Assembly: GCA_023247445.1 (NCBI GenBank)
Contig: JAHFGL010000008.1
Coordinates: forward strand, 13,774 to 77,773
DNA length: 64,000 nt
Direction of reading: 5' to 3'
Origin: Candidatus Omnitrophota bacterium
GTDB lineage: Bacteria; Omnitrophota; Gorgyraeia; Zapsychrales; Zapsychraceae
Shown here: positions 1 to 64,000 of the stretch, one piece after another
How the letters are laid out: the number at the start of each line of letters is the position of its first letter
Numbering within the stretch: position 1 is the first letter of the stretch
The notes under the pieces: generated by a model
The model's database searches: none
What the model was told of the DNA's origin: nothing
The model's input: only the letters and a program-made list of their open reading frames with translations
Translations under genes and position numbers: made by a program

Positions 1-412
1 TGATTTCCTTGACAATAAATTCGATCTTGTTCATTCAAGTGGGATTCTCCATCTTAATTCCCGTTACCGGGATATTGTCAAAGAAATGTACAGAGTCTCT
101 GCAAAATATGTTTTATGCGACTTTCGGCTTACCGAAGGTTCTGATGTAATTGGTGAAATGGATGTAAATTTAGTCGGGCAAGAGAAATCTGTAGGAGCCC
201 TGCCTTATATTGTGCTCAATATAGAGCGCCATCTGGAATTTCTTAAGGCATTGCGACCTGCTGCTCTTTCAATTCAAGTCAGAGGATACGCGCACCCTCC
301 TTCAAAATTGGCGCGGATTAAAGTGGGCCGCATCTATATGGCTTTTTTTCTTATAACAAAAGAGAATTCGGCGAATCCTGCCACAAAAGTTGAAATAAAT
401 TTAAATGAGTGA
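1..412 (+). CDS. SAM-dependent methyltransferase, C-terminal fragment (5' end cut by the window edge)
   Basis: Open frame from nt 2 with no stop (DFLDNKFDLVHSSGILHL...), resembling the end of a class I methyltransferase fold. Ends TGA at 412, overlapping the next start. Confidence 0.35.
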   Translation, partial: DFLDNKFDLVHSSGILHLNSRYRDIVKEMYRVSAKYVLCDFRLTEGSDVIGEMDVNLVGQEKSVGALPYIVLNIERHLEFLKALRPAALSIQVRGYAHPPSKLARIKVGRIYMAFFLITKENSANPATKVEINLNE

Positions 413-1503
413 TTTTTATGATTGAACCCAAGGCACTTTTAAAAAAAATATCCCGAGTCTCTGGACATGGTGAGGCACGTATTGGCCGGGCTATGCGTTT
501 GGATCGCAACGAACGGACAACGCCATTAGCTAAGGATATTGTTGAAGCCGTATGGTCCCAAATTTCTCCGGAAGAAATTGTCGCTTATCCCGAACTGGAG
601 CCGCTTTATCAAAAACTGGCGCGATTTTTGAATGTTCTTCGCCAGAATATTCTTCTGTGCAGCGGTTCTGATACGGGTATTAAGAGTGTCTTTGAAACAT
701 ATGTGCAGCAAGGCGATGAAGTGGTCATTTTGACACCGAGTTATGGAATGTTTTCTGTCTATTGCGATATGTTTGGAGCCACGAAGATTCTTATGCACTA
801 CGATGAGGATTTTTTTCTGCCTGTAAAACGAATAACTGAGAAAATTAATCCCAAAACAAAGCTTGTCATATTAGCTAATCCTAACCATACCGGAACGGTT
901 ATCCAAGAGAAAGATATCCATTCCATCATCGAATACGCGGCCCAGTACAACACCCTCGTTCTGGTCGATGAGGCTTATCACCATTTTTATCCAGAGACCA
1001 TTATTTCTTATATCGGCCAATATGATAACTTAATTGTGGTCCGTAGCTTTTCTAAGGCTTTTGGCATTGCGGCGTTACGTGTAGGATATCTTATAAGTCA
1101 GACACAAAATATTCAAAATTTAGATAAAGTGCGATTGACGCACGAAATTACCAGTGTTTCGGCGAAGTTCGCGGCGTATCTTATTGATCATCCAGAAATT
1201 TATCAGGCATATGTGAAGGATGTTGAAGAGGGAAAAAGTTATATTGCCAAAGAATGTCAGAAAATAGGAATTACGGTGCTGCCATCAACGACTAATTTCT
1301 GTTTTTTTCGTCTGCCTGATTTTTGGGACGCGAAAGAAATGGTTCTTAGCTTAAAAAAACGAGATGTCCATATTAAAGGGCCGTTTCAAGAGGTTCCTCT
1401 TAATGGTCTTATACGGATTACCCTTGGTCCCGAAAAGCAGATGCGGGAATTTATGAATATTTTTAAAGAAATTTTAAAGGAGTGTCAAATTGAAGCGAAA
1501 TAA
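409..1503 (+). CDS. Class I/II PLP-dependent aminotransferase, histidinol-phosphate aminotransferase (HisC)/CobD-like
   Basis: Contains the SFSKAFGIAALRVGYLIS motif with the PLP lysine typical of HisC and threonine-phosphate decarboxylase. 364 aa. ATGA overlap with the upstream gene. Confidence 0.75.
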   Translation: MIFMIEPKALLKKISRVSGHGEARIGRAMRLDRNERTTPLAKDIVEAVWSQISPEEIVAYPELEPLYQKLARFLNVLRQNILLCSGSDTGIKSVFETYVQQGDEVVILTPSYGMFSVYCDMFGATKILMHYDEDFFLPVKRITEKINPKTKLVILANPNHTGTVIQEKDIHSIIEYAAQYNTLVLVDEAYHHFYPETIISYIGQYDNLIVVRSFSKAFGIAALRVGYLISQTQNIQNLDKVRLTHEITSVSAKFAAYLIDHPEIYQAYVKDVEEGKSYIAKECQKIGITVLPSTTNFCFFRLPDFWDAKEMVLSLKKRDVHIKGPFQEVPLNGLIRITLGPEKQMREFMNIFKEILKECQIEAK

Positions 1504-2287
1504 TTCTACCATCAAAAAAAGAACAAAAAGAATTCCAGTCCTTGGGGCTATCCCCGCCAGAATGGGTTCCAGCCGTTTTCCCGGGAAACCTCTAAAACTT
1601 ATCGCTGGAAAATCCATGATATGGCATGTTTGGCAGCGGGCTTTGTTAAGTGGTGTTCTGGATGACTTAGTAATTGCCACTTGTGATGAGGAGATTAAAA
1701 CAGCCGCTGAGGAGTTCGGGGCGAAAGTTGTAATGACCTCCGACAAACACACGCGGGCTAACGATCGGGTCGCTGAGGTCGCCAGTAAAATTCCCTGCGA
1801 AATTATTTTAAATATTCAGGGGGATGAACCATGCTTGAATCCACAATTAATCCGCGATGTGGTTAACCATATTCGTAAAAATCCGCATGTGCAATGTTCG
1901 AATCCCGTGGCGGTTATTGAAACAAAGGAAGAAAGAGAAACCCCCCATGATATTAAGGTTTGTTTTGATTTAAATGGAAGAATTGTTTATTTTTCCCGCT
2001 GTCCGGTTCCCTCAGATTCGGTCGTTGAGAGAAAATATCCTTGTTACCGGCAGATCCCTATCTTGGCATTCCGGAGTGAATTTTGTCAAAAATTGGCTAA
2101 GCTTAAACCGGGGCCCCTAGAGTTGCAGGAAGGCACCGATTTATTGCGGGCGGTTGAGCATAATTTACCGGTTCATATTTTAAAAACGAAATATCAAACC
2201 AAAGGCGTGGATATCCCTAGTGATATCCAAGAAGTGGAGAAACGCATGGAGAAAGATCCGATTTACAATCGGTATCGTTTCAAATAA
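1490..2287 (+). CDS. CMP-ulosonic acid synthetase family cytidylyltransferase (KdsB/NeuA-like, CTP_transf_3)
   Basis: N-terminus IPVLGAIPARMGSSRFPGKPL matches the KdsB/NeuA signature (IIPAR..S.RlPgKpL). 265 aa. Confidence 0.75.
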   Translation: MKRNNSTIKKRTKRIPVLGAIPARMGSSRFPGKPLKLIAGKSMIWHVWQRALLSGVLDDLVIATCDEEIKTAAEEFGAKVVMTSDKHTRANDRVAEVASKIPCEIILNIQGDEPCLNPQLIRDVVNHIRKNPHVQCSNPVAVIETKEERETPHDIKVCFDLNGRIVYFSRCPVPSDSVVERKYPCYRQIPILAFRSEFCQKLAKLKPGPLELQEGTDLLRAVEHNLPVHILKTKYQTKGVDIPSDIQEVEKRMEKDPIYNRYRFK

Positions 2288-2306
2288 CCATCAAGAGAGA
2301 TTACAA

Positions 2307-3407
2307 ATGAAAAAGAATATTAAAGTGGCGATTATTGGGTGCGGGCGGGTTTCTTTCCATCATGCAGAGATGCTGCGTGATGTATCCGAGGTTAAAGTAG
2401 TGGCCTGCTGCGATTTAATTAAAGAAAAAGTCGAGAAATTAGCTGGTGAACTTAACTGCCGGGCTTATCTTAATTATCATGAGATGTTGCAGGAAGAGGA
2501 AGTTGATCTTGTGACATTAGCCACACCCACTGGCGTCCATTTTGAGCATGTTCAAGATATATTAAACCATTATAAAGTGAATATCCTTTTGGAAAAACCG
2601 ATGGTTCTTAAAGTCTCGGATGGACTTGAATTAAAACGTTTAGCTGTTCAAAAAGAAGTACGGATATTTCCTGTCTATCAAAATCGTTTAAATAAGTCGG
2701 TTCAAAGAGTTAAAAGTGCCCTTTTGAATGGAGAACTGGGGGATATTGTATTGGGAACAGTAAGGGTTAGATGGTGCCGGCCCCAAAGGTATTATGATCT
2801 GGCCGCTTGGCGGGGAACGTATTCGATGGACGGCGGAGCGTATGTCAATCAGGGAATCCATTTTATTGATATTTTGAGATATTTGGCTGGAGAAATTCAA
2901 GCAGTGAACTCTTGTTTCGCTCGGCTTGGAGCTAAGCCTGAGGCTGAAGATACAGGGGTAAGTTTGCTTCGTTTTGAAAACGGCGCTTTAGGTCAATTAG
3001 AAATAACGATGGCCGCGCGTCCTCATGATTATGAAGCTTCTATTTCCATCGTTGGAAGTAAAGGATTGGCTGTTTTGGGAGGATGGTGCGCGAATAAGTT
3101 ATTGACGTTTTCTCCAAACCCGGAGGATGAACAGATTTTTAGTGAAGAAGTGCCCATGGCTTATGGATTTGGACACCGCGAGGTTTATCGTAGAGTCGCG
3201 AAGGTTTTATTAGAAGAAAATAATCCGCCAGTTGAATTTGAAGATGGGCTGAACACAATACGTTTACTGCACGCTCTTTACCGCAGTAACGAGGAACAAA
3301 AATGGATTAAGTTAGCCGATCAACTGGAATCGTTTCGTTTGGGGGAGCGCAATGAAAAGCTTTTAACCCCTTATCTAATCAAACCTCCACTGGTAAGTAC
3401 TAAATAG
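2307..3407 (+). CDS. Gfo/Idh/MocA family NAD(P)-dependent oxidoreductase
   Basis: N-terminal Rossmann KVAIIGCGRVSFHHAEML, a conserved EKP motif and ~365 aa. Start ATG 2307 with an AAGAGAG RBS. The track ORF extends upstream to 2220, inside the previous gene. Confidence 0.75.
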   Translation: MKKNIKVAIIGCGRVSFHHAEMLRDVSEVKVVACCDLIKEKVEKLAGELNCRAYLNYHEMLQEEEVDLVTLATPTGVHFEHVQDILNHYKVNILLEKPMVLKVSDGLELKRLAVQKEVRIFPVYQNRLNKSVQRVKSALLNGELGDIVLGTVRVRWCRPQRYYDLAAWRGTYSMDGGAYVNQGIHFIDILRYLAGEIQAVNSCFARLGAKPEAEDTGVSLLRFENGALGQLEITMAARPHDYEASISIVGSKGLAVLGGWCANKLLTFSPNPEDEQIFSEEVPMAYGFGHREVYRRVAKVLLEENNPPVEFEDGLNTIRLLHALYRSNEEQKWIKLADQLESFRLGERNEKLLTPYLIKPPLVSTK

Positions 3408-3413
3408 GAAAGC

Positions 3414-4472
3414 ATGGTATCCACAGATGAAAAATTAAAAGTCGGAATCGCCGGATATGGCGTTGTCGGTAAAAGAAGAAGACAATTTATCGATCAAAAT
3501 CTCCATATGAAGACTATCGCGGTATGCGATAAAACGCTGCGTAAATCAGATCTTTTTATCAATGGCGTTAAATGTTGTCGTCATTATAAAGAGCTTCTTA
3601 AAACTCCCTTGGATGTTTTATTTGTGTGTCTGCCTAATTATTTAGCCGCGGAGGTGACGATGGCGGGGTTAGAGAAGGGACTGCATGTCTTTTGTGAAAA
3701 GCCACCGGGACGAAGTGTTGCGGATATCGAAAAAGTTATTGAAGCCGAAAAAAAATATCCAAAGTTGAAATTGAAATACGGTTTTAATCATCGTTATCAT
3801 GATTCGGTGAAAGAAGCTTTAAGGATTATTCAGTCCAAAGAATTCGGCGAGATTATCAACATCAGGGGTGTTTATGGAAAAAGTAAAATCATTTCTTTTG
3901 CCAGTGGATGGCGCGCTAAACGCAAATACGCCGGCGGTGGGATACTCTTAGATCAAGGTATTCATATGGTGGATTTGATGCAGTTATTCTGTGGGAAATT
4001 TGTTGAGGTTAAAAGTTATGTTTCAAATAGCTATTGGCACCACGATGTCGAAGATAATGTTTACGCCATTTTGCGTGATAAGAACAATCGTATTGCTATG
4101 CTTCACTCGAGCGCCACACAATGGCAGCATCAGTTTTCTTTAGATATTACTTTAACCAAAGGATCTCTAAGGCTGCAAGGGATTCTTTCCGGCTCTAAAA
4201 GCTATGGACAAGAACAGCTCGTTAAGGTCCGCCGCAGTGAGGCGGATATCGGCACGCAAAGTGAAGAGGTCATTAATTATCTAAACGACAATTCCTGGCG
4301 GGATGAAGTCAATGAATTTGCCGATAGCATCGTTAATGATAAGCCTACCTATGCGGGAACAATCTTTGATGCCCTTTCCACTATGCAGTTAGTGTACAAA
4401 ATCTATAGCGCCGATGCCGAGTGGAAAGAGAAATTTCTCAAAGAAGATTCCGCTAAGATTTTAACAGTTTAG
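3414..4472 (+). CDS. Gfo/Idh/MocA family oxidoreductase
   Basis: KVGIAGYGVVGKRR Rossmann, CEKP motif, 352 aa. Confidence 0.7.
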   Translation: MVSTDEKLKVGIAGYGVVGKRRRQFIDQNLHMKTIAVCDKTLRKSDLFINGVKCCRHYKELLKTPLDVLFVCLPNYLAAEVTMAGLEKGLHVFCEKPPGRSVADIEKVIEAEKKYPKLKLKYGFNHRYHDSVKEALRIIQSKEFGEIINIRGVYGKSKIISFASGWRAKRKYAGGGILLDQGIHMVDLMQLFCGKFVEVKSYVSNSYWHHDVEDNVYAILRDKNNRIAMLHSSATQWQHQFSLDITLTKGSLRLQGILSGSKSYGQEQLVKVRRSEADIGTQSEEVINYLNDNSWRDEVNEFADSIVNDKPTYAGTIFDALSTMQLVYKIYSADAEWKEKFLKEDSAKILTV

Positions 4473-4486: not shown

Positions 4487-5107
4487 ATGAATACATTAGA
4501 AGAAATTTTTAGAGAGAGCAGTCTGCAGACAGATTATTTCAAACGGTATTGTCATTATCTGCAAAAATTGATTTCTGAGATTGATGTTGAATCGGTTAAA
4601 AAAGTTGTGGATTGTTTTCTGGAAGCTCGATGTAATAACAAAACAATTTATTTCGCTGGTAATGGCGGCAGCGCGGCAACGGCCTCGCATTTTGCTCAGG
4701 ACATGGGGGAGATTGGAAGAAAAATCCGCGGCAAAGGCTTCCGAACGCAGAGTATCAATGATAATGTCGCCGCGCTAACGGCTATCAGCAATGACTACAG
4801 CTACGATAGTATTTTCTCTATGCAGATCCAATACAACTTTGACGAAAAGGACATTTTAGTTGTTATTTCAGCCAGCGGCAACAGTCCGAATGTCATTAAT
4901 GCCGTCAATCTGGCTAAAGCTAAAGGCGGAATAACAGTTTGTTTGGTGGGATTTGATGGTGGTCGTTTAGCCCAAATTTGCGACCAGGTCATTCATATCC
5001 AAAGCAAAAAAGGAGAATACGGTCCCGTGGAAGATATTCACCTTATTTTAAACCATATGATTGTTTCCTACTTGATGATGGAATTAAAAAAAGAGAGTGT
5101 GTCTTGA
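4487..5107 (+). CDS. gmhA: SIS-domain sedoheptulose-7-phosphate isomerase (GmhA family)
   Basis: GNGGSAATASHFAQD, ISASGNSPNVINA and VGFDGGRLA align motif-by-motif with E. coli GmhA. 206 aa. Confidence 0.75.
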   Translation: MNTLEEIFRESSLQTDYFKRYCHYLQKLISEIDVESVKKVVDCFLEARCNNKTIYFAGNGGSAATASHFAQDMGEIGRKIRGKGFRTQSINDNVAALTAISNDYSYDSIFSMQIQYNFDEKDILVVISASGNSPNVINAVNLAKAKGGITVCLVGFDGGRLAQICDQVIHIQSKKGEYGPVEDIHLILNHMIVSYLMMELKKESVS

Positions 5108-6030
5108 AACACAAAGTTCTTATATCGACATCAACTTTTGGAGTATCCGATGACACGCCTTTAAAACGGCTTGCCCAAGCGGGATTGGAGGCCAACATTA
5201 ATCCCTACAAGCGTAAACTTTCTAAAGAAGAATTGCTAAATTTGTTGCCTGAGGTGACAGGATTAATCGCGGGCCTGGAAACATTAGATGAGGAAGTAAT
5301 GTCCCGGTCGGATTTAAAAGTTATCTCGCGTTGCGGGTCAGGATTGTCCAATATTGACATGCGGGCCGCAGAGAGATTAGGCATTAAAGTATGTAGCACA
5401 CCGCGGGCGCCGACGCAAGCGGTAGCGGAATTAACAATCGCCTGTCTGTTAAATTTATTGCGAGGAGTTTCCACCATGGATCAGGATTTACATCAAGGCC
5501 GTTGGAATAAACAGACCGGATTGCAATTAGAGGGCAAGACTATTTTGATCGTAGGCTGGGGCAGGATCGGACGGCGTGTGGCTGAATTGTTAAGACCGTT
5601 TCATGTGCGGATTATCGTTGTGGATCCATTTGTGCAAAACATTACCAAGCAGTTTGAATTTTTAACGCTGGCTCAGGGTTTACCTTTAGCGGATGTTATT
5701 ACCCTGCACTGCAGCGGTGAAGATTGTTTTTTTTCCGCTGGCGAGTTTGCTTTGATGAAAAAAGGAGCGTTTCTTTTGAACGCGGCCCGGGGAGGATTAA
5801 TTGACGAAAAAGCGTTAATAAAAGCCATTGATGAAAGACTTGTTGCCGGAGCTTGGTTGGATACTTTTGAACAAGAACCTTATGTGGGAGAATTAATGCG
5901 TTATCATCAGGTCCTTTTGACGCCTCATGTAGGATCTTACACCGAAGAATGCCGAAGGCAAATGGAGTTAGAGGCGGTTGAGAATCTTATTTTTGCTTTT
6001 GAAGAAATAGAAAGTCGATGTCAGATATAG
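5104..6030 (+). CDS. D-isomer-specific 2-hydroxyacid dehydrogenase (phosphoglycerate/erythronate-4-P dehydrogenase-like)
   Basis: NAD-binding motif GKTILIVGWGRIGRRVAELL plus a catalytic-domain R/E/H pattern. Probable TTG start at 5104 after an AAAAAGAGAG RBS. The track ORF start at 4978 overlaps gmhA. Confidence 0.7.
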   Translation: MKHKVLISTSTFGVSDDTPLKRLAQAGLEANINPYKRKLSKEELLNLLPEVTGLIAGLETLDEEVMSRSDLKVISRCGSGLSNIDMRAAERLGIKVCSTPRAPTQAVAELTIACLLNLLRGVSTMDQDLHQGRWNKQTGLQLEGKTILIVGWGRIGRRVAELLRPFHVRIIVVDPFVQNITKQFEFLTLAQGLPLADVITLHCSGEDCFFSAGEFALMKKGAFLLNAARGGLIDEKALIKAIDERLVAGAWLDTFEQEPYVGELMRYHQVLLTPHVGSYTEECRRQMELEAVENLIFAFEEIESRCQI

Positions 6031-6764
6031 ATCTGCTGGAAAATTTAGATATCGCTAAAGTAGCGGCTAAGACAGCTGGACAATTTCTCATCAAGCAACA
6101 GCATTTGGCTCGACGTGTGTCTCAGGAACTCTTTCATGATGTGAAAATCAACGGAGACGTTGAGGCCGAGCAGATCATCCTGGAATATTTAAGGAGGCGC
6201 AGTAATTTTGCCATATTATCAGAAGAAACAGCTTCGCCAGATAAAGGGAATCAAGATTATCGTTGGATTGTTGATCCCATTGATGGGACTTTAAATTATT
6301 TTCAAAAGATTCCATTTTGTTGTGTTTCTATTGGTCTTTGGCAAGGGCAGAAGCCAATTTTAGGAGCCGTTTACGATTTTAATAGAGATGAACTATTCTC
6401 AGGAATCGCTGATGAGAAGGCATGGCTTAATGATGTTTTTGTGAAAGTGAGCAAAACCAAAACCAAAGAAAAAGCGGTTCTCTGTACAGGCTTTCCGGCT
6501 CTCACAGACTATTCTCAGGATGCTATACAAAATTTTGTCAAACAAATACAGAATTATAGAAAGATCCGTCTTTTGGGTTCCGCAGCTTTATCCATTGCGT
6601 ATGTCGCCTCAGGGAAGGTAGATGCTTATTGTGAGCGTGGTATTATGCTTTGGGATATCGCCGGTGGGATTCCTTTGTTGTTGGGCGCTGGTGGAAAAGT
6701 TCACATGGAAAAAGCAACCGAAGATAACAGTTTCAATGTTTATATCAGCAATGGATACATCTAA
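6018..6764 (+). CDS. Inositol monophosphatase family phosphatase (SuhB/CysQ/HisN-like)
   Basis: WIVDPIDGTLNY metal-binding motif. 248 aa. Confidence 0.7.
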   Translation: MSDIDLLENLDIAKVAAKTAGQFLIKQQHLARRVSQELFHDVKINGDVEAEQIILEYLRRRSNFAILSEETASPDKGNQDYRWIVDPIDGTLNYFQKIPFCCVSIGLWQGQKPILGAVYDFNRDELFSGIADEKAWLNDVFVKVSKTKTKEKAVLCTGFPALTDYSQDAIQNFVKQIQNYRKIRLLGSAALSIAYVASGKVDAYCERGIMLWDIAGGIPLLLGAGGKVHMEKATEDNSFNVYISNGYI

Positions 6765-6798: not shown

Positions 6799-7893
6799 AT
6801 GCCAGATTATTGTGAGTATTCTTTTTCTGCCGATTTTGTAAATCGGCTGCGTAAGTACGTAACATCAAGGGAATACCAAGATGTTGCAACTTATTCAAAA
6901 AGCGAATACTGGCAGCATTTTTCCGATGTTATTGACATTCGTTTCCTTGATAACAAGGTCATGTTAAAGGGGGAGTCAGGCTTTTATATCCCACAAAGAA
7001 AAGATGTGCAGAAGAGAGTCAAAAGAAATGTGACTAAGCTCATTCGGGAACCTTTGAGTTTAATACCATTTTTAAGAAGGAAAATTGGAATGCAGACATC
7101 AGAGATAAAATTATTAAATTATTTTGATGCTTTTGATAAAGTGATGGGCCACGATCGTGTTGCCAATATCGTCCTATCTCCCAATCGAATTAATTTCAAG
7201 GAATTGGCACAAAAACCGGGAATAATTTCTTCTGTTGATGATATGCGCCAGCAATTTTTTGCAAAAGACAAGTACAGTTTAAATGCTCAGATAGTTGAAG
7301 CTTATTATTATTACAACCTGTTGTCTGGTTTTCTAGACCCGACTTCAATTAAAACAGCATTGGAGATAGGTGGGGGAAACGGTAACCTGGCGTCATTATT
7401 TTATAGTTCAATGGATAATTGTACCATCATAAATGTAGATTTGCCCAAGACGCTTTGTCTGGCCATTGTGTTTATCGCAGATTTATTCCCGCAGGCAAAA
7501 ATGCTGTTGCCTCATGAAGAGCGTTCACAAGATTTGAATCATTACGATTTTATTTTTCTTACACCAAAGCAAATTTATATGATCGAGGATAACACCATTG
7601 ACTTGGCGATTAATACCGATTCATTTCAAGAAATGCCTCATCGGCAGATTAGTGAATATTTTAAGTTAATTCAAAGATGTTGTAAGAAGAATGCCTATTT
7701 CTTTACTTCTAATAGAGTAGAAAAGATTCCTTGTGGGCCCAATAATCAGCAAGAAACTTCTGAAACGCCCACCCGCTTTTCAGACTATCCATGGGATTCA
7801 GCCAATGAAGTGTTGGTTTACGAAATATGTAGACTAAAGAGGTTAGTTCAATTAGATGATGTGTTTATTCGTCTGGAGAGAGTAAAAAAATAA
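6799..7893 (+). CDS. Putative SAM-dependent (sugar O-)methyltransferase
   Basis: LEIGGGNGNLA looks like glycine-rich motif I of class I methyltransferases, followed by acidic INVDL. Otherwise unrecognised. 364 aa. Confidence 0.4.
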   Translation: MPDYCEYSFSADFVNRLRKYVTSREYQDVATYSKSEYWQHFSDVIDIRFLDNKVMLKGESGFYIPQRKDVQKRVKRNVTKLIREPLSLIPFLRRKIGMQTSEIKLLNYFDAFDKVMGHDRVANIVLSPNRINFKELAQKPGIISSVDDMRQQFFAKDKYSLNAQIVEAYYYYNLLSGFLDPTSIKTALEIGGGNGNLASLFYSSMDNCTIINVDLPKTLCLAIVFIADLFPQAKMLLPHEERSQDLNHYDFIFLTPKQIYMIEDNTIDLAINTDSFQEMPHRQISEYFKLIQRCCKKNAYFFTSNRVEKIPCGPNNQQETSETPTRFSDYPWDSANEVLVYEICRLKRLVQLDDVFIRLERVKK

Positions 7894-14689: not shown

Positions 14690-14697
14690 GGGAAATT

Positions 14698-36474: not shown

Positions 36475-36511
36475 AGATAATGTTGCAGCAGACAGATTTT
36501 AAAGATATAAA

Positions 36512-51093: not shown

Positions 51094-51134
51094 ACATCTT
51101 ATATTTAATAAAAAATTTTAAAAGATAAAGGAGA

Positions 51135-54708: not shown

Positions 54709-55154
54709 TCGAAGGTGTAAGAATCGAGCCCCGTAAAATATTACCTTACGAAAAGGGCGACGTGATGCAGATGTTGCGCGCTGATGAAAATTTTTTAAAA
54801 CAGTTTGGGGAGATATATTTCTCGTTTATTCATCCTGGCTTTGTCAAAGGATGGAAAAAGCATCAAAAACAGACCCAGCATTTTGTGGTGCCCGTTGGTA
54901 CAATCAAGCTGGTCTTGTACGATGATCGGCTTTTTTCGCGAACCAAAGGACAGTTGCAGGAAATAGAATTAGGAAGATCAAGATATCAATTAGTACGCAT
55001 ACCTCCCGAAGTGTGGTATGCCTTTCAGTCCATAGGTCAAGAAAGTGCCCTCATCGCTAATTGCACGGACATACCTCATGATCCCGCGGAAGCTGTAACA
55101 ATCGACCTTACTGATCAAACTGTTCCTTATACGTGGGATTTGGTAAAACGATGA
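54705..55154 (+). CDS. Cupin-fold NDP-4-keto-6-deoxyhexose epimerase/isomerase (RmlC/FdtA-like)
   Basis: 149 aa. GEIYFSFIHPGFVKGWKKHQ pattern. ATGA overlap with rfbG. Confidence 0.5.
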   Translation: MIEGVRIEPRKILPYEKGDVMQMLRADENFLKQFGEIYFSFIHPGFVKGWKKHQKQTQHFVVPVGTIKLVLYDDRLFSRTKGQLQEIELGRSRYQLVRIPPEVWYAFQSIGQESALIANCTDIPHDPAEAVTIDLTDQTVPYTWDLVKR

Positions 55155-57080: not shown

Positions 57081-57082
57081 AT

Positions 57083-58570
57083 ATGAATAAAACTACTAAG
57101 TTTCTTGATTTGTTTGGTTTAATAAGTATAGGGATATTCTCTCTAGGATATATCTGGCTCAATGTCCCATTGGCTGAACTTCATATCCAATTGTCTTTTT
57201 TGGACTTCCCAATATTTATTGGTGAAATATTACTGTTTATATGCCTAGTGATATTTATTTTTAGATGTGGAATCACGCCCCTCAAACTTAACCGATGGTA
57301 TTATGTGTTGATCCCTTATTTAATTTTTGTCATTACTAAAGCGCTCATAGGATACACACAATATGGCCCGTTGGCATTTCGAGACGCGGCCTTATTTTAT
57401 TATCCTCTCTTTATTCTTTTAGGTTATTGTTTTTATCAACGCGATTATTTTAGCAGCCCATGGATTTTCTTGATTTTCTTACCTATTGTATTAATTTTAT
57501 TTTCTATGGAAAGCACATTTACCGTTCATTGGGCACTGAGTTGTTCTATCCTAGGATTTGCCCTGCTCGTGGCATATCCGAATAAACTCTGGAGATACGC
57601 CCTGTTAGCTGTCCTAGTGGCAGTCACTCCGTATAAACTTTTTTTTCACACGTCTCGAATGATGCTGGTAAGCAATATTATCACGGGAATATATTTGATA
57701 ATTGTCTTCTATATTATTATACCGTTTAATAGAAAAATTAAGCTGATGTTTGTTATTTTAGGAATCCTTTTCTTTGGTGCTGGAACGTTTATGTTGTCAT
57801 ATACAGCTAGAGCAAAATCCATCATCAGTTTGAGAGAATTGATTATTTTGTACAATGAATACGATAAGGTTATTCAACAAAAGATGGATCATTATAAATT
57901 AATGAAGGTAAATAAAATTAGACTATTTAACGAGGAGAGTAAAGAAAACGATTTATATGCGTATTTTAAGATGGAAGAATTTAGGAAAAAAGAACTGCCG
58001 GATTCCCATACAGAAATATCAGACGCCGGTATGCCTAAGGATTTTAAGGGATATTCTACACCCATAGAGATAATACAGGTGGGAGAAAAAGTTGTTAAAC
58101 AATATGGAATCCCAATTGGGTATTATCATAATGCGCTTTTTCGTCTTTTTATTTGGAGAGATATGATAAATGAATTGAAGAAAGGTAAACCCATTTTCGG
58201 CTTTAGTTTTGGGAAGCCATTGCGTTCAATCAGCCTGGAAATTCTTAATTGGGGAACAGTCGAGTGGGAACGAGATGGCTGGATCGCCCCGCATAACTCA
58301 TATTTGCATATCATTTATCGATCAGGTCTTGTGGGAATTCTATTTATATTAACTATCCTTATTATGTTGTTTAGGATGATTATAATATTTATCCAAGCAA
58401 AATCAGTTATCGGCGTACTATTGTGCGGGATTATTATCAATTGGTTTGTAGCGGCGAATTTTTTATTGATATTCGAACTTCCCTACACGGCAATACCTAT
58501 TTGGAGTTTGTACGGGATAACATTGGCTTATTGTTATAAACCTCCTTTGGATAAAAAGAAAGATTCGTAA
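57083..58570 (+). CDS. O-antigen ligase/polymerase family membrane protein (Wzy_C domain)
   Basis: About 10 TM helices. WIAPHNSYLHIIYRSGLVGI matches the Wzy_C 'HNsyL..l.e.G..G' signature. 495 aa. Confidence 0.55.
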   Translation: MNKTTKFLDLFGLISIGIFSLGYIWLNVPLAELHIQLSFLDFPIFIGEILLFICLVIFIFRCGITPLKLNRWYYVLIPYLIFVITKALIGYTQYGPLAFRDAALFYYPLFILLGYCFYQRDYFSSPWIFLIFLPIVLILFSMESTFTVHWALSCSILGFALLVAYPNKLWRYALLAVLVAVTPYKLFFHTSRMMLVSNIITGIYLIIVFYIIIPFNRKIKLMFVILGILFFGAGTFMLSYTARAKSIISLRELIILYNEYDKVIQQKMDHYKLMKVNKIRLFNEESKENDLYAYFKMEEFRKKELPDSHTEISDAGMPKDFKGYSTPIEIIQVGEKVVKQYGIPIGYYHNALFRLFIWRDMINELKKGKPIFGFSFGKPLRSISLEILNWGTVEWERDGWIAPHNSYLHIIYRSGLVGILFILTILIMLFRMIIIFIQAKSVIGVLLCGIIINWFVAANFLLIFELPYTAIPIWSLYGITLAYCYKPPLDKKKDS

Positions 58571-58571: not shown

Positions 58572-59564
58572 ATGTATTGGAGAAATAAAAAAGTTCTAGT
58601 GACAGGTGCCGATGGTTTTATCGGAAGCCATTTGGTTGAGGAGTTGTTGGCTCGCGGGGCTAAAGTAAAGGCTTTCGTGTATTATAACGCGTTCAATAGC
58701 TGGGGATGGCTGGATACCTTGCCCGAAGAGTTCATGAAGAAAGTTGAAGTGTTTACCGGTGATGTGCGGGATTCCAATGGGGTTTTAAAGGCGTTTGAAA
58801 AAGCAGATGTTGTTTTCCATTTGGCGGCATTGATTGGAATTCCCTTCAGCTATCACTCACCAGATAGCTATGTCGATACCAATATTAAAGGAACGCTTAA
58901 TATTTTACAGGCGGCTAAGAAAAGCCGCGTGGAAAAAGTGATACACACTTCGACGAGCGAGGTTTATGGAACAGCGCAATACACTCCTATCGATGAATCG
59001 CATCCGATTAACCCGCAGTCCCCTTACGCGGCGACAAAATCGGCTGCCGATGATCTGGTCTTGTCATTTTACCGATCCTTTGATGTTCCGGTGGCCATCT
59101 TGCGTCCTTTTAATACTTTCGGGCCGCGGCAGTCCGCGAGAGCGGTTATTCCCACTATTTTATCCCAAATATGCGCGGGCCATAAAGTGATTAGACTTGG
59201 TAATCTGAAAGCTACGCGGGATTTTAATTATGTTAGCGATACTGTTGAAGCTTTCTTGAAAGTCGCTGAAGCTAAACAAACACCGGGTCAAGTTTTTAAC
59301 GCCGGCAGTAATACCGAAATCTCCATTCAAGAACTAGTTGACGTCATTCAAAACATAGCCAAGAGAAAAATAAAAGTGATTACGCAGGACCAGCGTCTTC
59401 GGCCGGAAAAAAGTGAAGTACAGCGGCTGGTTTGTAACGCAGATAAAATCAAGTCGGTCTGCGGCTGGGAAAGTCAAGTTTCTCTTAAAGAAGGGTTAAA
59501 GTTAACCTTGACCTGGATGAAGAAGAATTTACAACGATACAAAACAGGTATTTATAATGTCTAA
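58572..59564 (+). CDS. NAD-dependent sugar-nucleotide 4,6-dehydratase/decarboxylase-type SDR
   Basis: VLVTGADGFIGSHLVEELL and YAATK. 330 aa. Confidence 0.8.
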   Translation: MYWRNKKVLVTGADGFIGSHLVEELLARGAKVKAFVYYNAFNSWGWLDTLPEEFMKKVEVFTGDVRDSNGVLKAFEKADVVFHLAALIGIPFSYHSPDSYVDTNIKGTLNILQAAKKSRVEKVIHTSTSEVYGTAQYTPIDESHPINPQSPYAATKSAADDLVLSFYRSFDVPVAILRPFNTFGPRQSARAVIPTILSQICAGHKVIRLGNLKATRDFNYVSDTVEAFLKVAEAKQTPGQVFNAGSNTEISIQELVDVIQNIAKRKIKVITQDQRLRPEKSEVQRLVCNADKIKSVCGWESQVSLKEGLKLTLTWMKKNLQRYKTGIYNV

Positions 59565-60273
59565 AATCCAAGCGGTTATACTCGCTGGAGGAAAAGGCTC
59601 ACGGCTAAGACCATATACGACCATCTTACCTAAACCTTTAATGCCGTTAGGGGGATTCCCCATCGCCGAGATAATCATCCGGCGGTTACGGCGGTTTGGT
59701 ATTACGAATATTGTTATCTCGACGGGTCATCTAGCTGAACTGATTGAGGCTTTTTTTGGCAGCGGGAAAAAGTGGGGTGTCAAAATTAGCTATATTCGTG
59801 AGGATACGCCTCGAGGAACGGCCGGGGCACTGCGGTTAGTGAAAAATCCGGAAAAAGATTTTCTGGTTATTAATGGAGACATATTGACGGACATATCTTT
59901 TAGCGAGTTACTTAAATTCCATAAAATTAAAGATAATATCGCGACCATTACCATTAAAGAACGCAAGGTTTTGACTGATTTCGGGGTTATTGAAACAAAC
60001 GCCCTCGGGGAGCTCACCGACTACATTGAGAAGCCGGAGCATAAGTCTTTTGTCAGCACCGGAATTTATATTTTCAATACAAGATGCCTGGAATACATCA
60101 GGCCAAACGAATCGGTTGGCATGCCCAAATTAATGTTAAGGATGAAAAACGCGGGTGAAACCATCAGCTGTTTTCCCACAAATTCGTTATGGCTTGATCT
60201 AGGAAGATTAGATGATTTCGAAGAGGCCCAGGCAATATTTACCAAGCACCAAAAGAGATTTCTCGTTGAATAA
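59557..60273 (+). CDS. Sugar-1-phosphate nucleotidyltransferase
   Basis: ILAGGKGSRLRPYTTILPKPLMP. 238 aa. Confidence 0.75.
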   Translation: MSKIQAVILAGGKGSRLRPYTTILPKPLMPLGGFPIAEIIIRRLRRFGITNIVISTGHLAELIEAFFGSGKKWGVKISYIREDTPRGTAGALRLVKNPEKDFLVINGDILTDISFSELLKFHKIKDNIATITIKERKVLTDFGVIETNALGELTDYIEKPEHKSFVSTGIYIFNTRCLEYIRPNESVGMPKLMLRMKNAGETISCFPTNSLWLDLGRLDDFEEAQAIFTKHQKRFLVE

Positions 60274-61198
60274 ATTGAAAGTTCTTATTACTGGGATCAG
60301 TGGTTTTTTAGGCTGCGCGCTATGGCGGTATTTTGAGCGCAGCAAATTTAATGTCCAAGTCTATGGACTGGATAAAGCGATCAAGAATGATACACGTAAG
60401 CTGTTCGGCTGTGACTTGGCGAAAAAAAGTAAACTCCGCCCCATTCTTCACTCTATTAAGCCAGATTTTATTTTTCATTTGGCTGGCGGCCGTATGCCCA
60501 ACTATAAAGCCTTATTTCAATCCAACTATTTGACAACCAAATGTTTACTGGAAACAATTATGGAAATCAGGCACTATAGTCCAAGAGTTGTCATCCCCGG
60601 TTCAGCGGTAGAATATGGACCTAGTCGCGGGAGCCGAAGAAGAATGAAGGAAACGGATATCCCTGCTCCAGAGACGACCTACGGGAGAATTAAACTTAAA
60701 CAGACTCATTTAGGACTGCGGTTTGCGAAGCAGGGAGCCGATGTAATAATTGCCAGAATTTTTAACGTAATGGGAGAGGGGACACCATCGGCTTTAGCCA
60801 TAGGCCAATTCGCCAAGCAGATTGTGATGATAGAACAGGGATGTAAAGAAAAGATAATATATACAAAAAATCTAGAAGGCAAAAGAGATTTTCTAGATGT
60901 TGATGATATCTCTGCGGCGCTTTGGGCTGTTGCGCGCTATGGTCAGTCAGGTGAGATTTATAATGTATGCTCCGGACGGCCATTTGAAATCAGAAAGGCA
61001 TTAAAGAAGCTTTTGTCTTTTTCGCGGGTAAAAAAGACCCTTGTTGTAGAAAATAAAAATAGTGGTTCATCAAGTTTTGATGTCATCGGGTCCAACGCGA
61101 AATTAAGGTCTATATCCGGATGGGTTCCCCAAGTTACTCTAGAACGCAGCTTGATCAACACCTTACACTGGTACCAAAATCAGAAAAATATCAATTAA
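60266..61198 (+). CDS. NAD-dependent epimerase/reductase (SDR)
   Basis: KVLITGISGFLGCAL. Start uncertain: TTG 60266 or 60275, or track ATG 60212. Confidence 0.65.
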   Translation: MNKLKVLITGISGFLGCALWRYFERSKFNVQVYGLDKAIKNDTRKLFGCDLAKKSKLRPILHSIKPDFIFHLAGGRMPNYKALFQSNYLTTKCLLETIMEIRHYSPRVVIPGSAVEYGPSRGSRRRMKETDIPAPETTYGRIKLKQTHLGLRFAKQGADVIIARIFNVMGEGTPSALAIGQFAKQIVMIEQGCKEKIIYTKNLEGKRDFLDVDDISAALWAVARYGQSGEIYNVCSGRPFEIRKALKKLLSFSRVKKTLVVENKNSGSSSFDVIGSNAKLRSISGWVPQVTLERSLINTLHWYQNQKNIN

Positions 61199-61202: not shown

Positions 61203-62429
61203 ATGCGAATATTAATCTGTCACAATTATTATAAAGTTCCGGGAGGGGAGGATAGTGTTGTTGAAGCGGAATATTCTCTTTTAAAGGATTTTGGCCACGA
61301 AGTTATTTTGTATAAACGCAGCAATACTGAATTGGATTCTTGTTCCCCAGCAGGTAAACTTAAGCATTTATTTAGCCTGGGATGGTCTTCCCAGACCCAC
61401 AAAGATATAAAGGCTTTGATTGAAAAGTTTAAGCCCGATGTAGCACATTTTCATAATATTTTTTATGTGATCACTCCGGCGGCGTATTTCGCCTGCAAAG
61501 AGCAAGGCGTCAGCGTTGTTCAAAGTCAGCATAATTTTAGGTTATCCTGTTCCAACGGCCTTTTTTACAGAAAAAATAGAGTTTGTGAGGATTGTTTAAA
61601 AAAATCGTTGTGGGAAGGGGTTTATCATGGTTGCTATAGAAATTCGTGTGTCCTAACTACTTTTATCGCTGGTATGCTGATGGACCACTGGAAAAAAGGG
61701 ACGTGGCAAAAAATGGTTGATGTTTATGTTACGGCTTCCCAGTTCGGCCGGCAGAAATTGGCTATGGCTGGTATTCCCGCGGATAAAATTGTTGTAAAAC
61801 CAAATTTTGTTTATCCAGATCCTGGAATGCGTGAAAGATTGCAGACCAAAGGGTATGCTCTTTATGTGGGTCGTTTGAGTCCAGAGAAGGGTGTTAAAGT
61901 CCTCATAGAAGCATGGCGATCTATACCTAATTTTACGCTTCGCGTCATCGGCGTCGGGCCGTTATCGGATTTTTTGAAGTCTTATGTTAAGCAGCATAAC
62001 ATTTCCAATGTGGAATTTCGTGGGTATGTTAATCACGAGGAATATGATAAGAGTATGCGGCAAGCCGCTTTTTTGATTGTGCCATCATTGGCCTACGAGA
62101 ATTTTCCCAGAGTGGTCGCTGAAGCCTTCGCTTATGGGGTTCCGGTCTTGGCAAGCCGTTTAGGGAGCTTGGAGGAAATTATTAAAGAAGAGGAGATGGG
62201 TTTATTGTCTGCACCTGGAGATATTTCGGAACTTAGCCAAAAAATTCATTGGATGATAACACATGAAGATGAATTATTGAAAATTTCTGCCAATGTCCGT
62301 CGGTTGTATGAAGAAAAATATACGGCAAAGAAGAATTATGAATGTTTGGTCAACATATATAACAAAGCTATGGGGCATCGGCAGAATAGCTGTGAGTCAT
62401 TAAGCTGCTTAGGAGGAGCGGATCAATGA
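61203..62429 (+). CDS. Family 4 (GT-B) glycosyltransferase
   Basis: MRILICHNYYKVPGGEDSVV, and the C-terminal EXFP-like region NFPRVVAEAFAYGVPV. Confidence 0.7.
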   Translation: MRILICHNYYKVPGGEDSVVEAEYSLLKDFGHEVILYKRSNTELDSCSPAGKLKHLFSLGWSSQTHKDIKALIEKFKPDVAHFHNIFYVITPAAYFACKEQGVSVVQSQHNFRLSCSNGLFYRKNRVCEDCLKKSLWEGVYHGCYRNSCVLTTFIAGMLMDHWKKGTWQKMVDVYVTASQFGRQKLAMAGIPADKIVVKPNFVYPDPGMRERLQTKGYALYVGRLSPEKGVKVLIEAWRSIPNFTLRVIGVGPLSDFLKSYVKQHNISNVEFRGYVNHEEYDKSMRQAAFLIVPSLAYENFPRVVAEAFAYGVPVLASRLGSLEEIIKEEEMGLLSAPGDISELSQKIHWMITHEDELLKISANVRRLYEEKYTAKKNYECLVNIYNKAMGHRQNSCESLSCLGGADQ

Positions 62430-63886
62430 AAAGAATAGTTCATTTTTTAAAATCACAAAAAGCCTTTATCATCATTTTTTTGTTGTGTTTTTCCTATTGG
62501 GGTTATCTTTTCGTTAATTCCCAAATGGAAATAAAGTATGACGCCGTGGATTACGAGTATCTCGGTACGGTCATTTATCAACATGGGTGGGGACAATTTT
62601 TCAAACAGGGGCCTAACCGCGAACCTCTCTATCCATGGCTGATTGCTTCTTCAATGAATATTGCTCATGGGCTTGATATTCCCTACCAGCAAGTACAGAA
62701 GTTTTTGCAGATTATAATTTTGTTTATAACACAGCTGATGCTTCTTGCGCTGTTAAAGAAGGCAAAAATCCATAACGCCATCATCGGGGCGACGATTTTG
62801 TATTTTGGTTTTTCTCCAGCCATTGTTAATTCCACCTTTAGTCTTTATTCGGAAATAGCAGCTTATCCGTTTGTTCTTGGTATGATTTATTTTGGATATC
62901 TTTCGTGGAGAGATATCCATGTCGGTACCCTCTCCAAAGTTATGTGGTGGGGGATATTAATTTCTTTATCATTTATGGGCGCGGCATTTGTTAAGGCAAT
63001 ATTCCAATACATTTTTTTAATTTACTTGATTCCTTATGGTTATGTCGTACTATATTCTTTGATTAAAAAGGATAAAGGGGTTTTTGTTAAGGCATTCATC
63101 TTCATTATTGTTTCTAGTTCCATGCTTGTGTCGTCCGTTATTTCTTATCGATTTTTGAATAAATATTATAACGGCACGTTTGATTTTACGAACCGCTATG
63201 ATGTAAATCTCTTCGGCACAATAGCCAAACGAGTGGATCATCTAAGTCCGCAGTTGATGATGGCGCATCTGGCTTCGGTGCCAGGAACGGGGGTCTGCCG
63301 TGCATTCTTTAGCGAGGAGAACTGTAAATATTGTGAGTTTTTTGGCATGGATCAATATAGGGCAGCTATCTTGCCAGAGCTTCTTAGAAACAGGAGTATT
63401 ACAGATGGGGAAGATAGAAAGAGGGCAACGCTGTCCTTTGCTTTTGAGAAAATCAGCGAGAATCCTTTGCAGTATTTTTTTCTCACCGCTATTGAGAGTC
63501 TCAAAATGGCCTTTTGGGAATCAACACAGATAGGGTTCGTCCTTTATCCGCATTTTTTAAAACAACTTTTTAATTCCATGCCGATTAAAAATGGGATTAG
63601 ACTTTTAGTGTCATTGTTAACATATTTTTCTTTATTTTATATTATTGGTCAATTATACCGTTGGAGATCAAAACTTCGCGATTTTAAATCGGATGAGGTT
63701 GCGGGAATTCAGATTGGATTTTTTGTTTTGTTGATCATTGTGCCATTTACGGGTTTTTATGCTTTGTTTCCTATATTAACCCGTTTTGCTTTGCCTATTG
63801 CCGCGCTTTATCTGTTTTGCATCGCTTTTACAGCGCAGGGTCTCACATTCGGGAAAAAATTGCATAAGAAACCCGCGCAGGTATAA
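62426..63886 (+). CDS. GT-C-like membrane glycosyltransferase (ArnT/PMT_2-like)
   Basis: About 11 TM helices. First-loop DAVDYEY...REPLYPWL resembles the PMT/ArnT acidic motif and PPL region. ATGA overlap. Confidence 0.45.
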   Translation: MKRIVHFLKSQKAFIIIFLLCFSYWGYLFVNSQMEIKYDAVDYEYLGTVIYQHGWGQFFKQGPNREPLYPWLIASSMNIAHGLDIPYQQVQKFLQIIILFITQLMLLALLKKAKIHNAIIGATILYFGFSPAIVNSTFSLYSEIAAYPFVLGMIYFGYLSWRDIHVGTLSKVMWWGILISLSFMGAAFVKAIFQYIFLIYLIPYGYVVLYSLIKKDKGVFVKAFIFIIVSSSMLVSSVISYRFLNKYYNGTFDFTNRYDVNLFGTIAKRVDHLSPQLMMAHLASVPGTGVCRAFFSEENCKYCEFFGMDQYRAAILPELLRNRSITDGEDRKRATLSFAFEKISENPLQYFFLTAIESLKMAFWESTQIGFVLYPHFLKQLFNSMPIKNGIRLLVSLLTYFSLFYIIGQLYRWRSKLRDFKSDEVAGIQIGFFVLLIIVPFTGFYALFPILTRFALPIAALYLFCIAFTAQGLTFGKKLHKKPAQV

Positions 63887-63928
63887 TCAGAAGATTTCCC
63901 CTAATAACAAAAGATTAAGGAGCTGAGA

Positions 63929-64000
63929 TTGATTAATATCGGAATTATTGGTTGCGGCCATTGGGGGCCCAATTATATACGCGTCTTTTCTCAATTACCA
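63929..64000 (+). CDS. Gfo/Idh/MocA oxidoreductase, N-terminal fragment (3' end cut by the window edge)
   Basis: TTG start after TAAGGAG. INIGIIGCGHWGPNY Rossmann. Confidence 0.45.
   Translation, partial: MINIGIIGCGHWGPNYIRVFSQLP

Follow-up and report, generated by a model that had tools for sequence, protein, structure and literature searches.

What would a bacterium build with dozens of glycan genes that all lie on one strand and have almost no DNA between them? This question is raised by a 64,000-nucleotide (nt) stretch from Candidatus Omnitrophota bacterium (GenBank assembly GCA_023247445.1, contig JAHFGL010000008.1, positions 13,774 to 77,773 of the forward strand), which we call the window and along which all positions below are counted. 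Our reading is that its gene array, g1 to g58 with one small gene gS (Table 1), probably serves to make, tailor, assemble, and export one or more surface glycans rich in nonulosonates. It is a very large mosaic surface-glycan locus of a kind that is already known, and the rfb and nonulosonate loci of Leptospira are its closest points of comparison.

The layout of the array can be described from the list of open reading frames (ORFs) and from a separate six-frame scan, both of which give 58 non-nested plus-strand ORFs of at least 100 amino acids (aa) tiling positions 86 to 63886. Together with one conserved ORF of 58 aa these make 59 plus-strand genes without a strand switch, which bears out the roughly 60 co-directional glycan genes of a preliminary description of this DNA, as well as its statement that every credible gene is on the plus strand. 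The minus strand has 12 ORFs of at least 100 aa, the longest of 142 aa, and a minus-strand gene was rejected because every one of them is nested within plus-strand genes having strong family matches. Coding density is about 98.5%, and the sole true noncoding gap measures 189 nt, so the earlier claim of almost no intergenic DNA also holds. The claim that most junctions overlap stands by a small majority (31 of 58 when the small ORF is counted), and nearly all of the remainder are gaps of at most 20 nt (21 junctions), with a single gap above 50 nt; overlaps and gaps of up to 20 nt together account for 52 of the 58 junctions. When the small ORF is left out, overlaps occur at 30 of 57 junctions (4 nt long at 14 of these, as ATGA, GTGA, or TTGA, and 1 nt long at 3, as TAATG), and the gaps measure 1 to 20 nt at 20 junctions, 21 to 50 nt at 5, and about 190 nt at 2.

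Gene starts were picked by Shine-Dalgarno (SD) motifs, and those of g4 (2307), g7 (5104), g11 (9888), g51 (55151), and g52 (56115) match gene calls on separately assembled metagenome contigs. SD-like 4-mers stand ahead of 34 of the 58 starts, compared with 9.7 ± 2.9 at random positions. A same-strand run of such length is far beyond chance, with a probability, computed for 57 junctions, of about 1e-4 at a strand bias of 85% and about 1e-17 at 50%. The GC content is about 0.41, and all 2-kb bins have a positive GC skew, as expected of a leading-strand array. Several other origins of this layout were considered and rejected. Per-gene GC ranges from 0.34 to 0.47 without a sharp break, which argues against the composition of a foreign island; paralogue identities do not exceed 49%, which argues against recent duplication. 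Scans of the window returned no Rfam family, tRNA, relevant DNA repeat, or poly-G/C tract, and no transposase family is among the Pfam and NCBIfam matches of its proteins, so we also rejected a mobile element or phase variation as the cause.

The first ORF is open at position 2, and the array extends beyond both window ends. On a separately assembled contig it continues at the 3' side with at least four further plus-strand genes (a GFO/IDH/MocA oxidoreductase, a family 2 glycosyltransferase [GT2], a radical S-adenosylmethionine [SAM] enzyme with a SPASM domain, and one other), and the window is likely to be one unbroken piece of a single-strand array that spans at least 68 kb. Gene order was reproduced for 928-13126, for about 24.8-30.6 kb, and from about 54.9 kb onward by contigs of two ENA assemblies and one Logan run; because these three stretches recur on separately assembled contigs, the layout is not an assembly artifact. 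Exact window proteins were found only in these metagenome assemblies and on one NCBI contig of 81.6 kb. Assembly ERZ27296333, which carries exact copies of window proteins, has the locus in pieces no longer than 12.5 kb (covering 928-13126, about 24.8-30.6 kb, and about 54.9-67.4 kb), and this breakage may reflect strain-level variation in the locus. One of its contigs has a gene call at window position 12544, whereas the window shows a 13-nt gap there. At g55/g56 (59557-61198), the ATG start at 60212 gives an unusually long overlap of 62 nt; because the Pfam domain starts at residue 24, the true start may be a TTG at 60266 or 60275.

The reading as a nonulosonate locus is carried by the gene families. 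Pfam and NCBIfam scans were run on all 58 proteins of at least 100 aa, and we treat as firm only those assignments above an NCBIfam curated cut-off, which are g3 (KdsB subfamily), g9 (NanM-type methyltransferase), g23 (TIGR04372), g27 (NeuC), g48 (RfbF), g49 (RfbG), and g54 (LegB). From these and weaker matches we infer that precursors are supplied by at least five routes. The first would lead from the nucleoside diphosphate (NDP) sugar NDP-N-acetylglucosamine (NDP-GlcNAc) through LegB (g54; TIGR04180, 487 bits, cut-off 475), the aminotransferase g14 or g15, g27, and g25 to a legionaminic-type acid, activated with cytidine monophosphate (CMP) by g39. The LegC, LegI, and LegF steps fall below their cut-offs here (g14 with 188 and g15 with 174 bits against 420; g25 and g39 as listed in Table 1). 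A second route would turn a hexose phosphate, by way of g31, g32, and g34, then the synthase g29 and the phosphatase g28, into a 9-phosphate-type Kdn- or Neu-like sugar activated by g30. The third would be a KdsB-type module (g2-g9), the fourth would convert cytidine diphosphate (CDP)-glucose to a CDP-6-deoxyhexose (g48-g51), and the fifth would provide a heptose-like NDP-sugar (g6 and g12).

Two of the three nucleotide-sugar pathways named in the preliminary description are thereby confirmed at the level of gene families. CMP-nonulosonate genes are represented by NeuC and LegB above cut-off, two NeuB-family synthases, and three or four cytidylyltransferases, and the CDP-6-deoxyhexose pathway by matches to TIGR02623 (336 bits, cut-off 300) and TIGR02622 (461 bits, cut-off 278), followed by an RmlC-like epimerase (g50, which matches dTDP_sugar_isom) and a short-chain dehydrogenase/reductase (SDR; g51). 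Because no E1/RfbH-type gene is present, the product of the latter would not be a 3,6-dideoxyhexose. The NDP-heptose pathway is plausible only. The best solved relatives of g6 are all phosphoheptose isomerases (GmhA), and those of g12 are the heptose-7-phosphate kinase HldA and RfaE-II-like cytidylyltransferases, but scores lie below the cut-offs (for the two domains of g12, 128 bits against 345 and 104 bits against 181.5, in the reverse of the usual HldE order), and no GmhB was named among the window proteins, where g16 and g28 are the candidates of the haloacid dehalogenase (HAD) type.

Loci related to the window, designated here by L numbers, show how such an array may vary. Three from other metagenomes (L003, L006, and L009) are 46 to 90% identical to it at the amino acid level and hold a backbone of g23-g39 and g48-g55 in the same order; L003 and L006 have a GC content of about 0.46 and are co-directional where genes were called. 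A locus in an Omnitrophica metagenome-assembled genome (MAG), L007, has g23-g25, gS-g39, and the one-strand layout, and the adjacency of g23 and g24 also recurs in L003, L007, and L014. The preliminary description had not recognized this combination of modules. We likewise found no published locus with this gene order, but the combination is not unique, since L003, L006, L009, and in part L007 contain syntenic stretches.

The relatives differ from the window by cassettes. L006 and L009 lack the cassette g40-g47 (43128-52816, about 9.6 kb), and in both of them the g39 homologue abuts the g48 homologue. The 5' junction of the cassette retains an ATGA overlap. The carbamoyltransferase g33 is missing from L003, L006, and L009, and a scan of reference genomes found for it only one gene, 52% identical, from the single-cell genome of a member of the Rhodobacteraceae. 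Near the g33 site, L003 (9952-13047) and L006 (1652-2986) have a class III aminotransferase, L003 also a formyltransferase; L006 has an extra methyltransferase as well. This swap suggests that the same sugar receives a different N- or O-acyl group. The locus would evolve through the exchange of cassettes around a conserved backbone, in the way of O-antigen and capsule loci, and a stable backbone with swapped cassettes is, by analogy, the behavior of serotype-determining glycan loci. Hypervariable cassettes of Omnitrophota and of SAR11 strain swarms resemble it in that close relatives keep the backbone and differ in their cassettes. The published Omnitrophota example, a hypervariable polysaccharide cassette (bioRxiv 10.64898/2026.05.20.726742), differs in content, having Wzc, AlgI/J, and a heptosyltransferase.

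The tailoring set is unusually rich, as the preliminary description had it, with B12 and SPASM radical SAM enzymes, carbamoyl-, sulfo-, and methyltransferases, and split transketolases all found. Three radical SAM enzymes are of the B12-binding type (g26, g38, and g47) and would probably act by C-methylation, and a fourth (g20) has a SPASM domain. Further tailoring would fall to O-methyltransferases, a carbamoyltransferase, a sulfotransferase, a kinase, and the two split transketolases, the last by two-carbon transfer or by precursor supply; they might provide sedoheptulose-7-phosphate or place a two-carbon unit on a keto-sugar. Between the two transketolase pairs (17528-19299 and 43128-44899), identity is 48% for the N-terminal and 32% for the C-terminal subunits. 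The position of g26 hints at radical methylation inside a nonulosonate pathway. It lies between the NeuB-type synthase g25 and the NeuC-type g27 (25515-29801), and its homologue occupies the same place in L003 (4277-8568) with 74% identity. In a Gammaproteobacteria MAG locus (L004/L005), the best named relative of g26 (51%) is found one gene upstream of a NeuC-type gene. To our knowledge, no B12 radical SAM enzyme, carbamoyltransferase, sulfotransferase, or split transketolase acting on nonulosonates has been characterized, and targeted literature searches for such tailoring enzymes returned none.

Some of these same families are common in aminoglycoside clusters, namely IolG-like oxidoreductases, the inositol monophosphatase (IMPase)-family phosphatase, the HisC-like aminotransferase, the aminoglycoside phosphotransferase (APH)-like kinase, the carbamoyltransferase, and B12 radical SAM methyltransferases, and one could ask whether the window is a cluster for a secreted small molecule such as an aminoglycoside-, aminocyclitol-, or nucleoside-type antibiotic. 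We regard this as highly improbable. Against it stand NeuB, NeuC, LegB, several CMP-transferases, a Wzy-like protein, and transferases of the GT2, GT4, and GT-B types, as well as matches to surface-polysaccharide families (TIGR04371, TIGR04372, and PFTS, which are above cut-off or in Pfam, and, weakly, TIGR04326). The window has no regulator, resistance, or 2-deoxy-scyllo-inosose synthase-type gene, and its relatives vary by cassettes in the manner of serotype loci.

Nucleotide-sugar synthesis genes share the locus with several glycosyltransferases, as in Wzx/Wzy-dependent clusters. About eight transferases would act here, with transfer by g10, g23, g36, g37 (a Maf core), g42, g52, and g57; g53 and g58 would polymerize or flip the product, the ATP-binding cassette (ABC) exporter g24 would export it, and the GT2 and YfhO-like pair g42 and g46 may modify it after export. 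The predicted structure of g36 (predicted local distance difference test 90.5) has a GT-B fold, its best match being a bacterial polysialyltransferase, and this model makes g36 a candidate CMP-nonulosonate transferase or polymerase. It is likened to bacterial polysialyltransferases and GT-B capsule polymerases (such as PDB 5wcn, TagF, and 8a0m) by this fold and by its location among CMP-nonulosonate genes. It differs from them in that sequence identity is only about 10%, with a query-normalized TM-score of about 0.36, and in its length of 627 aa with extra N-terminal parts. The PFTS family is small, with 45 g36 homologues at E ≤ 1e-10, of which the only named ones are from two Omnitrophica MAGs (44 to 45% identity). 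To g10, a candidate nonulosonate transferase, TIGR04326, TIGR04396, and the BFO_1060 family match weakly and below cut-off, and there is neither a Pfam match nor, by PDB sequence search, a solved relative. We rejected the idea that g10 and g36 are paralogues, as there is no similarity between them.

A number of points weigh against the reading of the array as a nonulosonate-rich surface-glycan locus. The LegC, LegI, LegF, GmhA, HldE, and PtmA assignments all lie below NCBIfam cut-offs and stay putative. Pfam and NCBIfam found no hexapeptide or GNAT N-acetyltransferase of the LegH/PglD type among the 58 proteins, which matters because di-N-acyl nonulosonate pathways need one. The same scans found no initiating phosphoglycosyltransferase (WbaP, WecA, or PglC type) in the 64 kb; this is notable because the pathways proposed above need such an enzyme, the gene for which could be outside the window, the source contig being 81.6 kb long. 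Neither Wzz, Wzc, or Wza nor an O-antigen ligase was recognized there. The Wzy_C match of g53 scores 24 bits against a Pfam threshold of 31.7, and g58 has no family match. The exporter g24 is a fused half-transporter like MsbA, PglK, or HepA, not a Wzm/Wzt (KpsM/KpsT) pair, and a Wzt_C protein occurs in the distant locus L004. The two export routes and the candidate internal promoter point to more than a single product. The acceptor of the glycan could be lipid A-core, a capsule anchor, or a protein, and the operon structure, finally, is our inference from the DNA itself.

Under that structure, the array would be transcribed as a few very long polycistronic mRNAs, translational coupling would be widespread, and an internal promoter would probably lie before g47. 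Coupling over long transcripts agrees with the overlaps and with the location of SD motifs inside upstream genes. Consensus scans gave 145 promoter-like sites where 163 were expected from shuffles, and 68 terminator-like sites where 58.5 were expected, so neither is enriched. Promoters or terminators inside the array had been named in the preliminary description as evidence that would count against its reading. No plus-strand terminator-like site lies in any intergenic position of the 64 kb, but a promoter-like site does: in the only true gap, TTGACA-17-TATAGT (51065-51093) agrees with the sigma-70 consensus at 11 of 12 positions, and AGGAG precedes the ATG at 51138. At least two transcription units are therefore likely.

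Could the window then be two or more independent glycan loci, placed head to tail on the leading strand and each with its own promoters, for example, one for an ABC-exported nonulosonate polymer and one for a Wzx/Wzy-dependent CDP-6-deoxyhexose polymer? We consider this possible if somewhat unlikely. The near-consensus site in the gap would be one of those promoters, two kinds of export and assembly are present (g24 versus g53 and g58), cassette boundaries fall at g39/g40 and g47/g48, and LegB (g54) lies 30 kb from the other legionaminic-type genes. On the other side, the legionaminic-type genes occur in the two halves alike, which makes these interdependent. Besides the one gap, the tight junctions leave no room for further promoters or terminators, and the two halves are directly fused in L006 and L009.

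Leptospira offers the nearest parallel. Its rfb genes are nearly all co-directional, and four of the families matched in the window, some of them weakly, are ones that we take to have been first defined on Leptospira surface-glycan genes (TIGR04326, the name of which carries LIC13510; TIGR04371 NanM; TIGR04372; and PFTS). The rfb loci of some strains exceed 100 kb (PMC13111663). In the nonulosonate cluster of L. interrogans, aminotransferases, nonulosonate synthases, and CMP synthetases are each present several times; the cluster includes a legionaminic pathway, and its 9-phosphate-type synthase forms one protein with a phosphatase (PMC3438082). Judged from these published descriptions, the window is alike in its large size and in having several aminotransferases, synthases, and CMP synthetases, and the overall logic matches, in keeping with the preliminary remark that co-directional glycan loci of such size are known, with spirochete rfb loci as the example. 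One difference lies in the synthase and phosphatase, which are fused in Leptospira and separate in the window, where the SAF-less synthase g29 adjoins the Kdn-9-phosphate/KdsC-type phosphatase g28 (29812-31170) as an unfused counterpart. As a catalog, the window is of value in documenting an uncultured lineage that invests at least 68 kb in sialic-acid-like surface chemistry, and it adds a further case of dozens of one-strand surface-glycan genes with almost no spacers that are diversified by cassette swapping. Overall novelty is modest; what makes the locus interesting is mainly its unusual tailoring set and a conserved triad of genes.

The triad consists of gS, g37, and g38. The ORF of gS (39581/39593..39769) fills what appeared to be a 190-nt gap ahead of g37, and its stop codon overlaps the g37 start (TAATG). 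With a ratio of nonsynonymous to synonymous polymorphism (pN/pS) of 0.19 to 0.33, gS is, as judged from its sequences, under purifying selection. Its family comprises about 59 clusters of proteins of 54 to 86 aa, and the ORF is conserved in the relatives and across phyla. In the small protein, the Asn of the LKGN[FY] motif and the Gly-Ser of LGGS[MI] are invariant, and the linker between the two motifs varies. Members of the g37 family measure about 340 aa, are 43 to 80% identical, and occur in Omnitrophica, Deltaproteobacteria, Thalassotalea/Colwellia, and one planctomycete; the best named relatives of g37 itself are from Omnitrophica (59 to 62%) and Deltaproteobacteria (60%). The counterparts of g38 that adjoin g37 homologues in other phyla are 62 to 90% identical to it.

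The neighborhood of the triad was compared in 83 loci, 80 from a metagenome scan plus L006-L008. Among loci with enough sequence at the relevant side, a gS homologue lies directly upstream of the g37 homologue in 70 of 76, and a g38-type B12 radical SAM gene directly downstream in 51 of 53, often followed by a CMP-transferase. Longer loci have LegB-, PtmE-, NeuB-, and NeuC-like genes close by. In Thalassotalea piscium the triad is found within a flagellar region, near FliE, FliF, FleQ, and two long Maf proteins. Our best guess is that the three proteins form a complex that modifies or transfers nonulosonates, and is tied to legionaminic-type sugars; with considerable doubt, the triad may be put forward as an undescribed nonulosonate-handling system tied to legionaminic-acid genes across phyla. 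A literature search found no published study of it, nor did it yield anything relevant on nonulosonates in Omnitrophota or on B12 radical SAM enzymes encoded in flagellin or nonulosonate loci.

Two ways in which the triad could work are suggested by its parts. The Maf core may load a nonulosonate onto the invariant serine of the gS LGGS motif, gS serving as acceptor or carrier, with the radical SAM enzyme then modifying the sugar. Alternatively, a gS-g37-g38 complex may C-methylate a CMP-activated legionaminic-type sugar to give a new carbon-extended or branched sialic-acid-like sugar. If either is true, the window encodes sugar chemistry without a characterized precedent, and characterization of the triad could bring to light either a new way of modifying nonulosonates or a new kind of Maf-type transfer. 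The presence of the triad in cultured Thalassotalea makes it directly testable. A partial precedent exists in Shewanella oneidensis, where GlfM/Maf-2 is a tripartite flagellin sialylation system in which GlfM, an 89-aa adaptor, is encoded beside the short Maf-2 (bioRxiv 10.1101/2023.12.03.569772). Both systems set a short Maf protein without an acceptor-binding domain beside a small conserved soluble protein. They differ in the size and motifs of the small protein, and only gS-g37-g38 has a radical SAM partner.

This parallel bears on the acceptor question, for which the most serious alternative is that the window is mainly a protein O-glycosylation island, acting on flagellin, pilin, or S-layer, instead of a polysaccharide locus. 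The Maf-core protein g37, the flagellar setting of the gS and g38 homologues in T. piscium, and the presence of LegB, PtmE-like, and PtmA-like genes would all fit such an island, as would the similar pairing of a short Maf with an adjacent small protein in the published GlfM/Maf-2 system. Maf islands of Campylobacter, Aeromonas, and Shewanella likewise place Leg/Pse-type genes by a Maf-family (MptE-like/DUF115) protein and a PtmA-like SDR. Unlike flagellin islands, however, the window has genes for polymer assembly and none for flagella; neither its 64 kb nor the 17- to 21-kb stretches of its relatives contain a flagellar, flagellin, pilin, or S-layer gene. The poly-G/C phase-variable tracts of Campylobacter maf genes are absent as well. 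The protein g37 is the MptE-like/DUF115 core only and lacks a TPR or other C-terminal acceptor-binding part; its 340 aa compare with 822 aa for Maf-1, which has a TPR domain, and 441 aa for Maf-2. Moreover, the Wzy-like protein, the GT2, GT4, and GT-B transferases, the ABC exporter, and the YfhO-like protein point to lipid-linked polymers. We therefore judge a mainly protein-directed island quite unlikely and hold to a surface glycan as the principal product.

The coordinates of all genes and of the intergenic gap are collected in Table 1.

Table 1. Genes and other features of the 64-kb window, with the family evidence for each; bit scores are followed by the cut-off of the model
Feature	Position	Strand	Evidence or remark
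g1, 3' part of open ORF	2..412	+	No family match
g2, class I/II pyridoxal phosphate-dependent aminotransferase, HisC/CobD-like	409..1503	+	Aminotran_1_2 1e-46; hisC below cut-off
g3, KdsB-type ulosonate cytidylyltransferase	1490..2287	+	CTP_transf_3; NF003952 242 bits (cut-off 193)
g4, g5, GFO/IDH/MocA sugar oxidoreductases	2307..4472	+	Pfam/NCBIfam
g6, SIS-domain isomerase, GmhA-like	4487..5107	+	SIS_2; gmhA 109 bits (cut-off 209)
g7, D-2-hydroxyacid dehydrogenase; g8, IMPase/HisN-family phosphatase	5104..6764	+	
g9, NanM-type sugar O-methyltransferase	6799..7893	+	TIGR04371 121 bits (cut-off 44)
g10, 651-aa "surface carbohydrate biosynthesis" protein, candidate nonulosonate transferase	7936..9891	+	
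g11, SDR epimerase/dehydratase	9888..10985	+	
g12, nucleotidyltransferase (N-terminal)-PfkB kinase (C-terminal) fusion, HldE-like	11015..12547	+	Domain order swapped
g13, SDR epimerase/reductase	12561..13586	+	
g14, g15, DegT-family aminotransferases, PseC/LegC-like	13574..15846	+	49% identical to each other
g16, HAD-like protein; g17, APH-family kinase	15824..17537	+	g16 motif GVDFDNT
g18, g19, split transketolase pair 1 (N-terminal and C-terminal subunits)	17528..19299	+	
g20, radical SAM enzyme with SPASM domain	19313..20386	+	No solved relative
g21, RmlD-like 4-ketoreductase; g22, FkbM-family methyltransferase	20405..22497	+	
g23, TIGR04372-family glycosyltransferase; g24, fused transmembrane and nucleotide-binding domain ABC exporter, HepA/MsbA/PglK-like	22497..25518	+	
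g25, NeuB-family synthase with SAF domain, LegI/NeuB-like	25515..26630	+	TIGR03569 364 bits (cut-off 399.65)
g26, B12-binding radical SAM enzyme	26599..28644	+	KedN5-like C-methyltransferase family
g27, NeuC-type hydrolyzing NDP-N-acetylhexosamine 2-epimerase	28644..29801	+	TIGR03568 415 bits (cut-off 236)
g28, KdsC/Kdn-9-phosphate-type HAD phosphatase; g29, SAF-less NeuB-family synthase; g30, CMP-transferase	29812..31874	+	g30 weak
g31, sugar-phosphate epimerase/isomerase TIM barrel; g32, GFO oxidoreductase	31844..33816	+	
g33, NodU/CmcH-type carbamoyltransferase	33827..35650	+	
g34, SDR, PtmA-like; g35, conserved protein, no assigned function	35647..37693	+	g34 below cut-off
g36, PFTS-motif protein, 627 aa	37695..39578	+	PF27878
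gS, conserved 58-aa protein (62 aa from alternative start 39581)	39593..39769	+	LKGN[FY], LGGS[MI]
g37, 340-aa MptE-like/DUF115 protein	39769..40791	+	Maf catalytic core without acceptor-binding domain
g38, B12-binding radical SAM enzyme	40812..42392	+	
g39, PseF/LegF-like CMP-nonulosonate synthetase	42409..43131	+	PseF model 132 bits (cut-off 205.7)
g40, g41, split transketolase pair 2	43128-44899	+	
g42, GT2	44896-45618	+	
g43, DUF4915/TIGR03032 protein	45596-46789	+	Nothing in PDB sequence search
g44, sulfotransferase	46801-47727	+	
g45, SDR	47743-48726	+	
g46, 741-aa polytopic membrane protein	48723-50948	+	YfhO C-terminal match
Only true intergenic gap, 189 nt	50949..51137	+	Candidate internal promoter; within variable cassette
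g47, B12 radical SAM enzyme	51138-52769	+	
g48-g51, glucose-1-phosphate cytidylyltransferase, CDP-glucose 4,6-dehydratase, RmlC-like epimerase, SDR reductase	52817..56113	+	
g52, GT2; g53, 495-aa polytopic membrane protein, weakly Wzy-like	56115..58570	+	
g54, LegB NDP-GlcNAc 4,6-dehydratase; g55, sugar-1-phosphate nucleotidyltransferase, PtmE-like role; g56, SDR	58572..61198	+	
g57, GT4; g58, 486-aa membrane protein, candidate flippase/polymerase	61203..63886	+	g58 no family match

PDB sequence searches with g10, g36, g43, and g20 returned nothing, and g37 found MptE only weakly. By family, the SDR proteins comprise seven of the epimerase/dehydratase type (g11, g13, g21, g45, g51, g54, and g56) and one of the short-chain type (g34), and there are three GFO/IDH/MocA oxidoreductases (g4, g5, and g32). 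Hydropathy marks g46, g53, and g58 as polytopic, with about 9 hydrophobic segments in g53 and about 10 in g58.

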